A DNA stretch of 64,000 bases from an uncultured Verrucomicrobia subdivision 3 bacterium (GCA_903870815.1 CAIQEI010000085.1:2043-66042); one strand, 5' to 3'. Counted from the first letter of the stretch, positions 15,975 to 20,731 are shown. The notes: generated from the letters alone by a model not told the origin. Translations and numbers: made by a program.

Positions 15975-15990
15975 TGGCATCACCGCTGCT
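15975..15990 (+). promoter_or_regulatory. sigma-54-type promoter (-24/-12) for glnB-amtB
   Basis: TGGCATcaccgCTGCT has GG and GC at the canonical spacing of TGGCAC-N5-TTGCW. It lies about 60 nt upstream of the glnB ATG. Confidence 0.6.
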
Positions 15991-16050
15991 AAAGCCGCAT
16001 AGCCAATGTGTAGTTGGCCGGACGCGCACATATAACAAAACCATTAAAAC

Positions 16051-16389
16051 ATGAAAAAAATCGAAGCAATCATCAAACCGTTCAAGCTTGAAGAAGTAAA
16101 GGACGCGCTCAGTGAAATCGGCATTGAAGGCATGACCGTCAGCGAGGTCAAGGGCTTTGGCCGCCAAAAAGGTCACACGGAAATCTATCGCGGCAGCGAA
16201 TACACCGTGGATTTCCTCCCCAAAATCAAAATCGAGCTTGTCATTGCCGACGGCCAGAAGGACGCCGCCGTGACGGCGATCATTAAAGCGGCCAAAACCG
16301 GCAAGATCGGCGATGGCAAAGTCTTCATCTCCACCGTGGAGGAATCGGTTCGCATCCGCACCGAGGAAAAAGGCGATTCGGCCCTCTAA
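16051..16389 (+). CDS. glnB: nitrogen regulatory protein P-II
   Basis: The 112-aa ORF starts [17 protein letters not shown]. The T-loop is [21 protein letters not shown], and [12 protein letters not shown] is present. Confidence 0.95.
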
Positions 16390-16415
16390 ACCAACCAGAA
16401 CCCATTCAATAACAA

Positions 16416-17999
16416 ATGAACATGAAAAAATATTTTCTTACCCTAGGTTTGATGGCCGTGACCGCGCTCGGGACCTTGTCGGTTCGCGCTGATGACACGA
16501 ACGCGGCGGCGGCCTCCACCAATGCGGTAGCGGCGGCAACCAATGAAGTAGCGGCCGCAGCGGCGCCGGCCACGCCGGCTCCGCTGCCAACGGGCACGCT
16601 GGATCAGCGCGTTGGCGCGCTGGAAGCCTACATCGAGAATACTGACCCAACGGCCGGGCTCAAGGACACCAACGGCACACAGATTGCCACCACCGCGATT
16701 CTGGGTAACCCCGGACCGGGCCATAACGCTTGGCTGCTCACCAGTACGGCGTTCGTGCTGTTCATGACGCTGCCCGGCCTGGCGCTGTTCTACGGCGGCA
16801 TGGTGCGCCGCAAAAACGTGCTGTCCGTCCTCGCCCAGTGCTTCCTGATCACCGGCCTGGTGACCATCCTTTGGGTGTACATCGGCTACGGCATGATCTT
16901 CGGCGGCACCGGCGCGGCAGCCAAGGAAGACGTGATTGCCGGCTGGGTTGGCAGCCCGACGATTGACTGGATGTTGAAAAACGTCACGTCGGCTCCGAAC
17001 TCGAACTACTCCTACTGGGTGTCGGAAAACGTGTTTGCGATGTTCCAGTTGATGTTCGCCGTTATTACGCCGGCGCTCATCATTGGTTCCATTGCGGAAC
17101 GCATGAAGTTCAAGGCCATCTTCGTCTTCATGACGTTATGGATGATCATCGTTTACTTCACGCAAGGCCACGCGGTCTGGGGCATCAACGGCTATATGAA
17201 CGGCGTATGGAACGCCGGCGCCAAGATCAAGGCGATGGACTTTGCCGGCGGCACAGTGGTGCATATGACCTCCGGCTATTCGGCCCTCGTATTGGCACTG
17301 ATTCTCGGCAAGCGCAAAGGCTTCGGCAAAGAGAACTTCGCGCCACACAGCCTGGTGTTGACCTACATCGGCACCGGCATGCTGTGGGTTGGCTGGTATG
17401 GTTTCAACTCAGGTTCAGCGGTCGCCGCGGACGTGATTGCGGCCAACGCCTTCACCACCACGACCATCGCCACGGCCATCGCGTCGTTCGTCTGGCCGAT
17501 GTGGGAGTGGATTGTCAAAGGCAAGCCGAGCGTGCTCGGTTTCTGCTCGGGTGCCGTCGCCGGCCTCGTGGTGATCACGCCCGCTTGCGGTTATGTCACG
17601 GCCCAAGGCTCAATCTGGATCGGGATTGCGGCCGGCACAATCTGCTGGTTCATGTGCTACAAGGTCAAGGGCTGGTTCGGCTATGATGACGCCTTGGACA
17701 CCTTCGGTGTTCACGCCATCGGCGGAACAACCGGCGCCATTATGACCGGCATGCTGGCCCGTAACGCGGTCAACGCCAACCTCGCGACCAACCTGAAGGC
17801 CTACGTCACCGACAGCTGGTTCCAACCGCTCGTCAAGGAACAGCTCAAGGCCGTGGCCATCACCATCGTGTTGAGCGTGATTGGCACCATTATCATCGCC
17901 TACATCACCAAGCTGCTCGTGGGTCTGCGCCCGACGGAAGAAGTCGAAATGACTGGTCTCGACGAATCCGAACACGGCGAACTCGGCTACCACGACTGA
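16416..17999 (+). CDS. amtB: ammonium transporter with an N-terminal Ala-rich exported extension
   Basis: The Amt core (AWLLTSTAFVLFMT...FAGGTVVHMTSG...GVHAIGG) follows a signal peptide and an Ala/Thr-rich segment of about 90 aa. Confidence 0.95.
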   Translation: MNMKKYFLTLGLMAVTALGTLSVRADDTNAAAASTNAVAAATNEVAAAAAPATPAPLPTGTLDQRVGALEAYIENTDPTAGLKDTNGTQIATTAILGNPGPGHNAWLLTSTAFVLFMTLPGLALFYGGMVRRKNVLSVLAQCFLITGLVTILWVYIGYGMIFGGTGAAAKEDVIAGWVGSPTIDWMLKNVTSAPNSNYSYWVSENVFAMFQLMFAVITPALIIGSIAERMKFKAIFVFMTLWMIIVYFTQGHAVWGINGYMNGVWNAGAKIKAMDFAGGTVVHMTSGYSALVLALILGKRKGFGKENFAPHSLVLTYIGTGMLWVGWYGFNSGSAVAADVIAANAFTTTTIATAIASFVWPMWEWIVKGKPSVLGFCSGAVAGLVVITPACGYVTAQGSIWIGIAAGTICWFMCYKVKGWFGYDDALDTFGVHAIGGTTGAIMTGMLARNAVNANLATNLKAYVTDSWFQPLVKEQLKAVAITIVLSVIGTIIIAYITKLLVGLRPTEEVEMTGLDESEHGELGYHD

Positions 18000-18034
18000 T
18001 CTTATCCGCCAAGGAGGAGGAACGGGGGATACAC

Positions 18035-18993: not shown

Positions 18994-19430
18994 TCAGGTT
19001 CCTTCTTGTCCTCTGGCAAAATGGTAGCGAACTCAAAATCAATCACGCAAAAGCGTCCGTCGGAGAACCGGTAAGTGACGTTGCGGACGTCCGGATCATC
19101 GTGGCGCACGCCAAACTTTTCCAGTTCGTCGAAGATTTCCTTCCGGCGCTGCTCATCCAACTGCTCCACGCGGGTGCCACAGTTGGTGGTGATGATGCGC
19201 AGCTTGCTCCGGTCGGCTTCCAGCAGGCGCGGCACAAAATCGCAACCGTGCGCCTTGAGATGGCGCAGCACGCGCACCTCGTTATCGAACCTCCCATTCG
19301 CCTTCGGCCCGTGGTAAGCCTTGAACACCCGGCCGTCAAAACTCAAATGAACGGTCGCGCGCAATGTATCTTTTACCTTCAACATCCCGCGGCGAATATG
19401 ACGCATCCCTGAGACGATGCAAAGCGGCAT
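18990..19430 (-). CDS. minimal protein-kinase-like (APH/ChoK-like core) protein
   Basis: It has VFKAY (Lys), NEVRVL (Glu), HDDPDVRN (HxDxxxxN) and VIDFEFA (DFE) at canonical spacing. It ends 11 aa after DFE. An ATGA overlap couples it to the PP2C gene. The start is ambiguous (ATG at 19430, 19406 or 19385). Confidence 0.6.
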   Translation of the reverse strand: MPLCIVSGMRHIRRGMLKVKDTLRATVHLSFDGRVFKAYHGPKANGRFDNEVRVLRHLKAHGCDFVPRLLEADRSKLRIITTNCGTRVEQLDEQRRKEIFDELEKFGVRHDDPDVRNVTYRFSDGRFCVIDFEFATILPEDKKEPE

Positions 19431-19596
19431 TGCACCGGCAAGGGAGTTTTTTATTCACGCTGATTAAATTACCGCAGAAATTCCCTATCGGGGCGGGTGG
19501 CGGGCCAATGGCGCAAAGTTATTCCCGCCGGCAAAACCATTGGTAGACGGGGGAAAACGGAGGTTTTACAATTCTTCGAACAAAATTCTTGCAGTC

Positions 19597-19612
19597 TGGC
19601 ACCGTCCCTGCT
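19597..19612 (+). promoter_or_regulatory. sigma-54-type promoter (-24/-12) for glnII
   Basis: TGGCACcgtccCTGCT has canonical GG/GC spacing. It lies about 80 nt upstream of the ATG and has the same CTGCT -12 element as the glnB promoter. Confidence 0.65.
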
Positions 19613-19693
19613 CAAACTTTCTCACCGTTGTCCAACTGATGCCCCGGCGTCAGTTGAATCGCAAATACTAAATCAAATACACACACCACGCAC

Positions 19694-20731
19694 ATGGCTA
19701 AATACAAATTAGAATACCTCTGGCTCGACGGCTATGAACCCGTCGCCAACATCCGCGGCAAAACCCAGGTCAAGGAATTCAAAGCCTTTCCCAAGCTCGA
19801 AGAACTCCCGATGTGGGGTTTTGACGGCAGCTCGACCCGCCAGGCTGAAGGCCGCACTTCCGACTGCATGCTTAAGCCCGTGGCTGTCTATCCCGACACC
19901 ACCAAGAAAAACGGCGCCCTCGTCATGTGCGAAGTCATGATGCCGGACGGCAAGACGCCGCATCCGTCCAACGGACGCGCCACCATTCCTGATGATCCCG
20001 GCGCCTGGTTCGGCTTCGAACAGGAATATTTCCTCTACAAGGACGGCAAGCCCCTGGGCTTCCCGGAATCCGGCTTCCCCTATCCGCAGGGTGAATACTA
20101 CACCGGCGTCGGCTACCGGAATGTCGGCTGCATCGCCCGCGAGATTGTGGACACGCACCTCGACCTCTGCCTTGACGCCGGCATCAACCACGAAGGCATC
20201 AACGCCGAAGTGGCCAAAGGCCAGTGGGAATTCCAGATCTTCGGCAAAGGCTCCAAGAACGCCGCCGACCAGGTGTGGGTGGCCCGCTATCTCCTGATGC
20301 GCCTCTGCGAAAAATACGGCGTGGACGTAAACTGGCATTGCAAGCCGCTCGGCAAGGATGTGGACTGGAACGGCTCCGGCATGCACTCCAACTTCTCCAC
20401 CGATCACCTGCGCACCGTCGGCGGCAAGGATTATTTCGAGGCGCTCATGGCAGCGTTCGACAAATACAAGAACGAACACATCGCCGTCTATGGTCCGGAC
20501 AATCATCTGCGCCTCACCGGCCTGCATGAAACCCAGTCCATCGACAAGTTCAACTATGGCGTGGCCAACCGCGGAGCCTCCGTGCGCGTGCCGCACAGCT
20601 TTGTCAACAACGGCTACAAAGGTTATCTCGAAGACCGCCGACCGAACTCCCAGGGCGACCCCTACAAGATCGCCGGCCGCATCCTCCAGACCATTGCGAC
20701 CGTGCCGATCAAGAAGTCATCCAAGAAGTAA
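19694..20731 (+). CDS. glnII: glutamine synthetase type II (eukaryote-like)
   Basis: The 345-aa ORF starts LEYLWLDGY...MWGFDGSST and continues with [20 protein letters not shown] and [10 protein letters not shown]. The size and motifs fit GSII rather than GSI or GSIII. Confidence 0.9.

Follow-up and report, generated by a model that had tools for sequence, protein, structure and literature searches.

A mini-kinase/PP2C pair conserved beside glnII in Verrucomicrobiota and Planctomycetota is a candidate switch for type II glutamine synthetase

Eukaryotic type II glutamine synthetases, such as plant GS1 and GS2, are controlled by serine phosphorylation with 14-3-3 binding. We know of no example of phosphoregulation of a bacterial type II enzyme (GSII), nor are the plant sites known to us to be shared, and no report of such regulation was found in the literature searched. 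The best comparisons for opposing activities of one bifunctional enzyme that reversibly modify a central metabolic enzyme are the adenylylation of the type I enzyme (GSI) by GlnE and the action of AceK on isocitrate dehydrogenase; in the GlnE system the target gene itself is under nitrogen (sigma-54) control. Adjacent and co-transcribed kinase and PP2C phosphatase genes occur in the pairs PrkC-PrpC, Stk1-Stp1 and PknB-PstP, whose Hanks kinases are full-length, usually membrane-bound, equipped with an activation loop and directed at many substrates. In the cyanobacteria Synechococcus and Synechocystis, the signalling protein PII is phosphorylated on Ser49 within the motif RGSEY and dephosphorylated by the PP2C enzyme PphA (homologue tPphA). 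Consistent with the statement in our first-pass annotation that the kinase for cyanobacterial PII has never been identified, this enzyme is still called unidentified in a 2025 review (PMC11863333) and likewise in PMC4285133. Ser49 is nevertheless kept without phosphorylation in Prochlorococcus, Anabaena and plants (PMC4285133).

The locus described here lies in a 64-kb stretch of DNA (the window) and comprises, all as read from the sequence, glnB, amtB, a PP2C gene, a kinase-like open reading frame (ORF) and a divergent glnII. The glnB/glnK-type PII gene (16051-16389, plus strand) encodes 112 aa, with a Pfam P-II match (PF00543) of 110.8 bits over residues 1-106 and scores of about 150-168 bits against solved PII proteins. 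It is followed on the same strand by the gene for an AmtB ammonium channel of 527 aa (16416-17999; Pfam Ammonium_transp, 347 bits, residues 105-525; TIGR00836, 402 bits), which carries about 100 additional N-terminal residues that are signal-like and Ala-rich. The amtB and PP2C genes are convergent, and the space separating them holds a terminator-like G+C-rich hairpin with a T-run after it (18035-18062; 12-bp stem, 9 GC pairs), which is a consensus match only, the count of such sites over the whole region not being above the shuffled expectation. The PP2C/PPM Ser/Thr phosphatase gene (18142-18993, 283 aa) and the kinase-like gene (18990-19430, 146 aa from the ATG at 19430) are both on the minus strand, and glnII (19694-20731, plus strand) encodes 345 aa. 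As stated in the first-pass annotation, the kinase/PP2C pair is thus located between glnB-amtB and glnII and is divergent from the latter; the intergenic spacer of 263 bp given there is correct for the ATG at 19430 and becomes 308 bp if translation starts at position 19385. The product of glnII contains both Gln-synt_N and Gln-synt_C domains (Pfam), has the expected length of about 340 aa and a GSII-type sequence. It scores 362 bits against the GlnII model, which is under the equivalog cut-off of 500, and the solved structure nearest to it is that of Streptomyces GlnII (4BAX, E 1.4e-88, residues 4-337).

Sigma-54-type -24/-12 elements are found on the plus strand upstream of glnB-amtB (TGGCATCACCGCTGC, 15975-15989) and 83-97 nt upstream of glnII (TGGCACCGTCCCTGC, 19597-19611). 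With 65 matches to this type of element in the window versus 89 expected, a single match is not above chance. When the conserved pattern GGYAY-N5-NTGC was scored across loci, 97 of 104 divergent spacers were found to carry it facing GSII, some 90-120 nt in front of the gene, and none of the 104 to carry it facing the kinase; it also occurs in the 200 nt that precede PII at 37 of 42 related loci, while the antisense strand carries it in none of the 42. Because of this strand- and position-specific conservation we regard both elements as real, so that glnB and glnII each have a predicted sigma-54 promoter in the correct orientation and at the correct spacing, and the glnII promoter that had been proposed in the intergenic spacer is borne out. 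GSII genes downstream of kinase-PP2C fusions likewise have a sigma-54-like element of their own (4/4 loci).

The T-loop of the window PII reads YRGSEY, with RGSEY at residues 47-51, which confirms the reported Ser49 (codon 16195-16197) and Tyr51 (codon 16201-16203). Residue 49 is Ala in the Neisseria and E. coli proteins and Thr in that of Aquifex, which are among the closest solved PIIs, and Anabaena PII carries Ser49. RGSEY is retained in 39/40 PIIs adjoining the module formed by the kinase and PP2C genes, and also at loci L091, L174 and L175. Since several lineages keep an unphosphorylated Ser49, its conservation is necessary and not sufficient for a phospho-switch. The 64-kb window contains no ORF of the size of GlnD; glnD is annotated in Methylacidiphilum, another verrucomicrobium.

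The kinase-like protein is one of a compact family whose members occur in Verrucomicrobiota and Planctomycetota. Most homologues begin at a conserved Met16 (MLKVKD..., position 19385), and the protein is probably a mini-kinase of 131 aa (18990-19385, minus strand) that has ePK-like subdomains I-VII only. With residue numbers following the 146-aa version, all or at least 90% of 38 diverse members share K37, E51, H110, D112, N117 and D131, which correspond to the beta-3 Lys, the alpha-C Glu, the catalytic-loop HxD...N and the DFG-like Asp of ePK-like enzymes. The DFG-like motif reads DFE and the protein ends about 10-15 residues later, so that the complete C-lobe of an ePK, with activation segment and subdomains VIII-XI, is absent; accordingly, the AF2 model (pLDDT 76.8) shows no helices beyond the Mg-binding loop. 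The only Pfam match is APH, at 27.6 bits and restricted to the catalytic loop, and no NCBIfam match was obtained. A Foldseek search with the model retrieved the RNA kinase ArkI (E 1.7e-5, 25% identity), then RIO, PRPK/Bud32 and CK2, with modest TM-scores (0.53). The family profile matched CDC7, CK2, Bud32 and NleH in the PDB with best E-values of 1.5e-4 to 2e-3, the matches covering the catalytic segment only, except for Bud32 (positions 16-123, E 9e-4). Membership in the Bud32, RIO, ArkI or NleH families was rejected, as there is no significant sequence match and the similarity is a resemblance only. Catalytic residues have been lost in a few members (in P0220, DFE is changed to NFE and RN to DY), and the PP2C of P0142 is degenerate. 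One divergent planctomycete clade whose members carry a tail (L176, L177) is solitary, with neither PP2C nor GSII adjoining and with unrelated neighbours.

To our knowledge, there is no precedent for an active kinase this small that ends right after subdomain VII, and the mini-kinase could therefore be a nucleotide-binding regulatory domain. The described minimal kinases share with it the N-lobe and the catalytic and Mg-binding loops, the C-lobe being reduced or absent. OspG and NleH lack subdomains VIII-XI and yet are active, being activated by a partner (PMC12756638), and ArkI is an active reduced kinase that retains subdomains IX and XI (PMC9095486). At 131 aa the mini-kinase is even smaller than these enzymes, has no glycine-rich loop consensus and is partnered with or fused to PP2C, and its sequence similarity to them is marginal (E about 1e-4 to 2e-3). 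Unlike the Hanks kinases, it is soluble and of mini-domain size, and one partner gene alone is conserved in its genomic context.

The PP2C has PPM domain matches (PF13672, PP2C_2, 58.6 bits; PF00481) and a complete metal-binding set, the motifs RKNNED, DGMGG, GDSR, TDGL and DNTT all being found; against the Stp1/IreP model it scores 185 bits, under the cut-off of 230, and by structure it falls into the group of Stp1 and PstP. Judged by their residues, kinase and PP2C both look catalytically competent. In the window the kinase stop codon overlaps the PP2C start (ATGA), and in two large sets 76/78 and 75/78 of the evaluable loci have the PP2C gene directly 3' of the kinase. Fusions of both domains, about 400 aa long (Pfam), are widespread in Akkermansiaceae, Roseibacillus and Verrucomicrobiaceae, and the AF2 model of one fusion (pLDDT 92.3, pTM 0.90) predicts a fixed two-domain arrangement. 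The best explanation is that mini-kinase and PP2C form one two-part enzyme, which would be a heterodimer here and is fused in Verrucomicrobiales.

To compare GSII and PII/AmtB as genomic partners, we used Limisphaerales species representatives as a close set, more distant metagenome loci with 55-69% identity, and loci looked up individually; the two large sets are almost free of redundancy, the 80 loci of each falling into 78 clusters. GSII adjoins the module in 60/72 Limisphaerales loci, 45/58 distant metagenome loci and all seven of the individually examined ones. PII/AmtB and the module are no more than 3 kb apart in 44 of 59 Limisphaerales loci, 1/28 distant metagenome loci and 1/6 individual loci. 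Within Limisphaerales, linkage to PII/AmtB (75%) is thus nearly equal to that of GSII (83%), and clustering of PII-AmtB with the module is specific to this group. Kinase and GSII are divergent in the window and in Opitutaceae (L090), the order is GSII, kinase, PP2C in Pirellulaceae (L089) and at L094-096 and L100-102, and a fusion is followed by GSII at L085-088 and L172; the Verrucomicrobiales fusions lie directly upstream of GSII, with PII not nearby. The remaining neighbourhood differs from locus to locus across these three arrangements, and among the loci inspected no third conserved gene other than glnII stands beside the module. Over about 110 non-redundant loci, which come from two phyla and show three gene orders, GSII is therefore the constant neighbour of the module. 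The pair has no adjoining glutamine synthetase gene in about 17-22% of evaluable loci, some of which lack any adjoining nitrogen gene. Of the initial proposal, a genuine and conserved module with two tightly coupled parts and its linkage to nitrogen-assimilation genes are upheld, while PII as its partner and the linkage to glnB/amtB outside Limisphaerales are not. No published description of a linkage between a mini-kinase/PP2C pair and GSII was found.

Synteny of this kind shows a functional link and does not tell which protein is the substrate. In the first-pass annotation, the pair was proposed as a possible complete PII Ser49 kinase/phosphatase module, a non-cyanobacterial counterpart of the PII-P/PphA switch with the mini-kinase as a candidate for the missing class of PII kinase. 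The RGSEY motif of the window PII, its Ser49 kept in 39 of 40 module-adjacent proteins, the nearby glnB-amtB of most Limisphaerales loci, the vacancy for a cyanobacterial PII kinase and a phosphatase of the bacterial subgroup of tPphA all fit this idea. Against PDB sequences, tPphA is nominally the top match of the PP2C (E 7.4e-25), but it is tied with PstP (8.2e-25), and a fold search with the PP2C half of the fusion places PstP first, with TM-scores of 0.85-0.88 to PstP, tPphA (about 0.87) and Stp1, so that the resemblance to tPphA appears to be generic bacterial PP2C similarity. Moreover, outside Limisphaerales PII/AmtB is almost never near while GSII stays, the fused forms adjoin GSII only, Tyr51 is kept too and is compatible with uridylylation, glnD is annotated in a relative, and Ser49 alone is no sign of phosphorylation. 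All family members with an organism name attached are from the PVC group and none is cyanobacterial, which leaves the assignment to a missing cyanobacterial class unsupported. Since its constant neighbour is GSII and not PII, the module is more likely a GSII switch than a PII kinase, and we regard the latter as improbable.

A reading in which the kinase-like domain is a nucleotide- or metabolite-sensing subunit of the PP2C, or in which the pair targets another nitrogen regulator such as a transcription factor or AmtB, with glnII adjacency reflecting a shared regulon, is unlikely but merits some weight. It would account for the lack of subdomains VIII-XI and of any substrate-binding lobe, the rigid packing of the kinase on PP2C in the fusion model, the persistence of members with lost catalytic residues, a sigma-54 promoter that does not co-transcribe the pair with glnII, and the roughly 20% of loci without an adjoining glutamine synthetase gene. 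Near-invariant Lys, Glu, Asp, Asn and Asp across 38 members would, however, be unexpected in a pure binding domain, and glnII is the sole conserved third gene. It is very unlikely that the mini-kinase acts on a non-protein substrate, such as RNA (as ArkI) or a small molecule (as APH), with a separate role for PP2C: although the tRNA 2'-kinase ArkI is the best structural match and APH the only Pfam match, RIO, PRPK, CK2, CDC7 and NleH match about equally well, obligate pairing or fusion with a protein phosphatase favours a phosphoprotein substrate, and the mini-kinase lacks the region of the basic C-terminal helix alpha-7 proposed to bind tRNA in ArkI (PMC9095486). The least probable explanation is that a general Ser/Thr signalling module lies in a nitrogen cluster by chance; pairs without an adjoining nitrogen gene and the two divergent stand-alone members would agree with it, but retention of GSII over two phyla and three orders while other neighbours change disfavours it.

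Our preferred reading, to which we assign about an even chance, is that the module is a reversible phosphorylation switch dedicated to GSII, acting in the way that GlnE acts on GSI. As the conserved genomic partner of the module, GSII is the most likely substrate, and the sigma-54 element that points toward GSII and never toward the kinase was counted, as a regulator/target logic, in favour of this reading. The two-part enzyme would phosphorylate a nitrogen-assimilation protein on Ser/Thr and dephosphorylate it again: nitrogen limitation would turn on glnII transcription from its sigma-54 promoter, and the separately transcribed kinase/PP2C pair would rapidly adjust the activity or stability of GSII at the post-translational level, with an effect that may go in either direction. 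The parallel with GlnE and AceK would be one of logic, as there is no homology, the proposed chemistry is ePK-like Ser/Thr phosphorylation with PP2C hydrolysis, and the predicted target is a type II and not a type I enzyme. Serine phosphorylation of a GSII-type enzyme would be shared with plants, whose CDPK/CRK-type kinases are unrelated. The substrate-binding half of the C-lobe is missing entirely from the kinase, whose activity therefore probably depends on docking to PP2C and/or GSII, much as OspG and NleH require a partner; OspG relies on bound E2~Ub and Bud32 on Cgi121/Kae1. In Limisphaerales, PII may sense the nitrogen state and tip the balance between kinase and phosphatase, in the manner of its action on GlnE, or possibly be a second substrate. 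If the GSII reading is true, the module would represent an undescribed on/off switch for type II glutamine synthetase.

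The five-gene set of the locus was confirmed in the window by ORF listing and profile searches. On the forward strand, a glnB/K-type PII gene (16051-16389, 112 aa) is followed by amtB (16416-17999, 527 aa, transporter domain at residues 105-525) and a terminator-like hairpin (18035-18062). The reverse strand carries a kinase-like ORF (18990-19430), hereafter the mini-kinase, whose stop codon overlaps the start of a PP2C phosphatase gene (18142-18993, 283 aa); we refer to this pair as the module. The type II glutamine synthetase (GSII) gene glnII follows on the forward strand (19694-20731, 345 aa). 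Among species representatives, the best match is a MAG from Limisphaerales (Verrucomicrobiota), whose kinase is 91% identical. AmtB residues 1-104 (16416-16730) form an extension of about 100 residues, a signal-like hydrophobic stretch followed by an Ala-rich low-complexity segment; in related loci, the AmtB genes called next to the module encode proteins of comparable length (521-532 aa).

Several features of the surroundings were also recorded. A MoxR AAA+ ATPase gene (14608-15588, − strand) lies directly upstream of the glnB promoter region, an adjacency shared with the close relative L001. The gene at 13580-14533 (−) matches a DUF58/VWA protein of L001, and by comparison with this relative the ORFs down to 7930 (−) probably continue a BatA/VWA (Bat-like) operon. 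Just downstream of glnII, a heme-related cluster (20805-24199, −) contains hemC, hemA and a CcsA-like cytochrome-c-assembly gene that was assigned by position, the Pfam match being on its L001 counterpart and not on the window ORF. L001 shares this synteny, and there the hem genes adjoin two genes (L001 1-1757) for an FtsK/SpoIIIE ATPase and a WXG100 protein, hallmarks of type VII-like secretion that are unusual for Verrucomicrobiota. Further downstream lies an L-arabinose utilisation cluster (38297-46045, +) with araA, ribulokinase and a XylE-type sugar porter. An ORF of 217 aa (41919-42572) that splits this cluster has a signal-like N-terminus and an unusually low third-position GC of 0.41, against about 0.75 in its neighbours, and may be a recent insertion.

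To determine which nitrogen gene accompanies the module, the check that the first-pass annotation itself had suggested, adjacency was counted by tblastn of the window proteins against three sets of fetched loci: the 80 GTDB species representatives nearest to the window (Limisphaerales-like throughout, with identities of at least 70%), 80 metagenome loci of more distant clades sharing 55-69% identity, and seven individually examined loci from other lineages. Redundancy is low, since the 80 loci of each large set fall into 78 clusters. GSII was adjacent in 60/72 evaluable loci of the close set, in 45/58 of the distant set and in all seven of the third. PII or AmtB was found within 3 kb in 44/59 loci of the close set. 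The first-pass annotation had read the locus as a candidate PII switch; synteny with nitrogen genes points to GSII as the conserved partner, PII/AmtB being near in 1/28 distant and 1/6 individually examined loci outside Limisphaerales. In about 17-22% of the evaluable loci the pair has unrelated neighbours, and ORF inspection of nine loci lacking an adjacent GSII likewise found unrelated neighbours and no divergent GS overlooked by tblastn.

The linkage to GSII is retained in different arrangements. A gene encoding a kinase-PP2C fusion is directly followed by GSII in Roseibacillus persicicus, a Verrucomicrobiaceae contig, Akkermansiaceae contigs and strain JB023, where neither PII nor AmtB lies close by and the remaining neighbours all change. 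A Pirellulaceae genome (Planctomycetota) has GSII first, then kinase and PP2C, and two further contigs, one from Opitutaceae and one of 1 Mb from Limisphaerales, have GSII divergent from kinase and PP2C, with no PII alongside. Adjacency that persists through three gene orders in two phyla is a textbook sign of functional association, and we consider it probable that the module is functionally linked to GSII. Across these loci, the glnB-amtB linkage appears as a Limisphaerales feature. In one distant metagenome locus (L114) a PII gene (2443-2778, −) lies directly downstream of PP2C with no amtB between, and its T-loop reads RGSDY, retaining Ser49 with Glu50 replaced by Asp. Nine GTDB species-representative MAGs carry the typical Limisphaerales locus (L013, L017, L019, L023, L040, L041, L048, L052, L077); their record titles include Dongiaceae, Acidiferrales, Bifidobacteriaceae, Gemmatales, Kapaibacterium, Acidoferrum and Klebsiella, so that the contigs are probably mis-binned or the records mislabelled.

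Sigma-54 -24/-12-type elements lie upstream of glnB (15975-15989) and of glnII (19597-19611). A single match of this kind is no better than chance within the window; the elements are regarded as conserved because of their strand and position in related loci. An element is directed at GSII in 97/104 divergent spacers, about 90-120 nt before the start codon, and at the kinase in 0/104, and upstream of glnB it occurs in 37/42 loci, as opposed to 0/42 on the antisense strand. GSII genes downstream of a fusion gene have their own sigma-54 element in 4/4 loci. That GSII has its own sigma-54 promoter and the kinase/PP2C never does agrees with a regulator whose expression is separate from that of its inducible target. 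The window also encodes, at 50327-52939 (+), a PAS-HisKA-HATPase sensor kinase followed by a response regulator with receiver, sigma-54-activator and HTH_8 domains. This response regulator could be the activator of both promoters. An identification of the pair as NtrBC was rejected, as the best scores were to AtoS/AtoC and the NtrC score of 412 bits fell below the cut-off of 559.

The kinase gene has PP2C directly behind it in 76/78 and 75/78 of the evaluable loci in the two large sets, and Pfam identifies representatives of about 400 aa with an N-terminal kinase as kinase-PP2C fusions. A search with one fusion recovered a large Verrucomicrobiales clade (Akkermansiaceae, Verrucomicrobiaceae, Roseibacillus), annotated merely as 'PP2C domain-containing protein'. 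One fusion was modelled with AlphaFold from 60 sequences; a pLDDT of 92.3 and a pTM of 0.90 predict with confidence that its domains are fixed relative to each other. Foldseek with this model found no solved structure of kinase-PP2C architecture, the PP2C half alone being matched (TMq ≤0.54). This half superimposes at TM 0.85-0.88 on the bacterial PP2Cs PstP and Stp1 and on tPphA, a homologue of the cyanobacterial PII-P phosphatase PphA. The window PP2C has a complete set of PPM metal-binding motifs. Kinase and PP2C thus form one functional unit. Three family members may be pseudo-enzyme derivatives: the fusion P0220 and P0232 have RN changed to DY in the catalytic loop, P0220 also NFE for DFE, and the PP2C of the fusion P0142 lacks the DGMGG motif. 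A divergent clade has a mini-kinase with a C-terminal tail of about 25 aa in place of the PP2C partner (L176 5001-5450; L177 5001-5456). Neither of these two members, one from a Pirellulales MAG and the other on an unlabelled metagenome contig, has PP2C or GSII beside it, and the genes around them are unrelated (n = 2).

The mini-kinase is matched by more than 7,900 clusters at 90% identity, the best 120 at 75-92% identity, with labels such as 'Bud32', 'predicted Ser/Thr kinase' or, wrongly, 'phosphatase'. The family is compact, since HMMER, run over all 1.84 billion representatives, yielded just 294 clusters (50% identity, E≤1e-3). As most homologues begin at MLKVKD, corresponding to Met16 of the ORF, the protein is probably 131 aa long (18990-19385). 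Invariant or at least 90% conserved in 38 diverse members are (ORF numbering) the beta-3 Lys K37, the alpha-C Glu E51, H110 and D112 of the catalytic loop, the Mg-binding Asn N117 and the DFG-like Asp D131 (in IDFE), and the chain ends 10-15 residues past DFE. The AlphaFold model (pLDDT 76.8) comprises an N-lobe, one alpha-E-equivalent helix and the catalytic and Mg loops, with nothing beyond. The top Foldseek match was ArkI, a tRNA kinase of archaea (E 1.7e-5, 25% identity), with RIO, PRPK/Bud32 and CK2 next, and the family profile weakly matches CDC7, CK2 and Bud32 as well as NleH1/2, which are minimal effector kinases. ArkI retains subdomains IX and XI (PMC9095486), whereas the mini-kinase has subdomains I-VII only; the protein is thus an ePK-like core, more reduced than all solved structures that these searches matched. 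OspG and NleH similarly lack subdomains VIII-XI and are active, OspG being activated by a bound partner (PMC12756638). The mini-kinase resembles the minimal kinases and belongs to none of their families.

The sequence observations of the first-pass annotation, namely Ser49 and Tyr51 in the PII T-loop, the PII-amtB-PP2C-kinase-glnII locus and the sigma-54 elements, were borne out by ORFs, profiles and related loci. Among the nearest solved PIIs, those of Neisseria, Herbaspirillum and E. coli carry Ala49 and that of Aquifex Thr49; Anabaena PII carries Ser49. The window PII is otherwise a generic GlnB-like protein, and its residue 49 is genuinely of cyanobacterial type; Ser49 is conserved in 39/40 PIIs adjacent to the module. 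The annotation was also right about the background: phosphorylation of PII at Ser49 and the role of PphA are established, and the kinase was still described as unidentified in 2025 (PMC4285133, PMC11863333). Its proposal that the pair is a PII Ser49 kinase/phosphatase is now an improbable minority reading confined to Limisphaerales, because Ser49 by itself does not predict phosphorylation (PMC4285133), the window PP2C is equally similar in sequence to tPphA and PstP and hence not specifically PphA-like, the conserved partner is GSII, and the named family members belong to the PVC group only. The library of representatives has no taxonomy labels, and taxon statements rest on named matches, all Verrucomicrobiota/Planctomycetota except a few MAG labels (Bifidobacteriaceae, Klebsiella, Dongiaceae) that look like mislabelled bins. 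The family is likely absent from cyanobacteria, and the suggestion that it represents the missing class of PII kinase has no bearing on the cyanobacterial enzyme, for which it is a poor candidate; the outcome here is mostly negative. No GlnD-sized ORF was found in the 64-kb window; an annotated glnD is on record for Methylacidiphilum, another verrucomicrobium. The PII-kinase hypothesis is largely displaced by one centred on GSII.

The module is accordingly put forward as a candidate GSII kinase/phosphatase, and we rate the chance that GSII is its direct phospho-acceptor at just under even. In the most economical model, a bifunctional kinase/phosphatase would reversibly modify GSII, with the truncated kinase docking on PP2C and/or the substrate, in parallel to GlnE, the adenylyltransferase acting on GSI, and to AceK acting on isocitrate dehydrogenase. 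PII sets the balance of the opposing activities of GlnE. The added glnB-amtB clustering and the conserved Ser49 in Limisphaerales would allow two roles for PII there: it might be the effector sensor setting the kinase/phosphatase balance or, alternatively, a second substrate. More speculative, and on our estimate unlikely as a whole, is that PVC GSII is under a hitherto undescribed covalent switch, built on an ePK-like kinase of 131 aa (subdomains I-VII) that would be the smallest known and would work only while docked on a PP2C, either its partner or the one fused to it. Kinase and PP2C would between them phosphorylate and dephosphorylate GSII, with PII as the 2-oxoglutarate/ATP sensor setting the balance in Limisphaerales: a phosphorylation-based functional analogue of the PII-GlnE-GSI cascade. 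As candidate phosphosites, T137, S187, S228 and S319 are Ser/Thr conserved in module-linked GSIIs and different in Streptomyces and yeast GSII, a sequence list that is not counted as evidence.

As a type, the system belongs with the Ser/Thr kinase/PP2C modules; its new features are the 131-aa kinase core, the obligatory coupling or fusion to PP2C and the dedicated linkage to glnII. Literature searches found no description of the mini-kinase family or its PP2C fusion, and nothing relevant on bacterial GSII phosphorylation or a link of GSII to a kinase/PP2C; a 2025 survey of bacterial PP2Cs just remarks that some carry kinase domains. A core of this size with all catalytic residues, rigidly coupled to PP2C, would reveal how small a part of the fold suffices for catalysis and how a partner can stand in for the C-lobe.

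GSI is regulated by GlnE, cyanobacterial GS by inactivating factors, and Bacillus has a feedback-inhibited GS with TnrA/GlnR; we know of essentially no post-translational regulation of bacterial type II glutamine synthetases. The GSII hypothesis is specific and testable in cultured carriers such as Roseibacillus or Pedosphaera: in cultured R. persicicus the fusion adjoins glnII, and R. ishigakijimensis also has a fusion protein. A dedicated kinase/phosphatase encoded next to glnII would close this gap in GSII regulation, and would do so in two phyla that are abundant, environmental and gut-associated.
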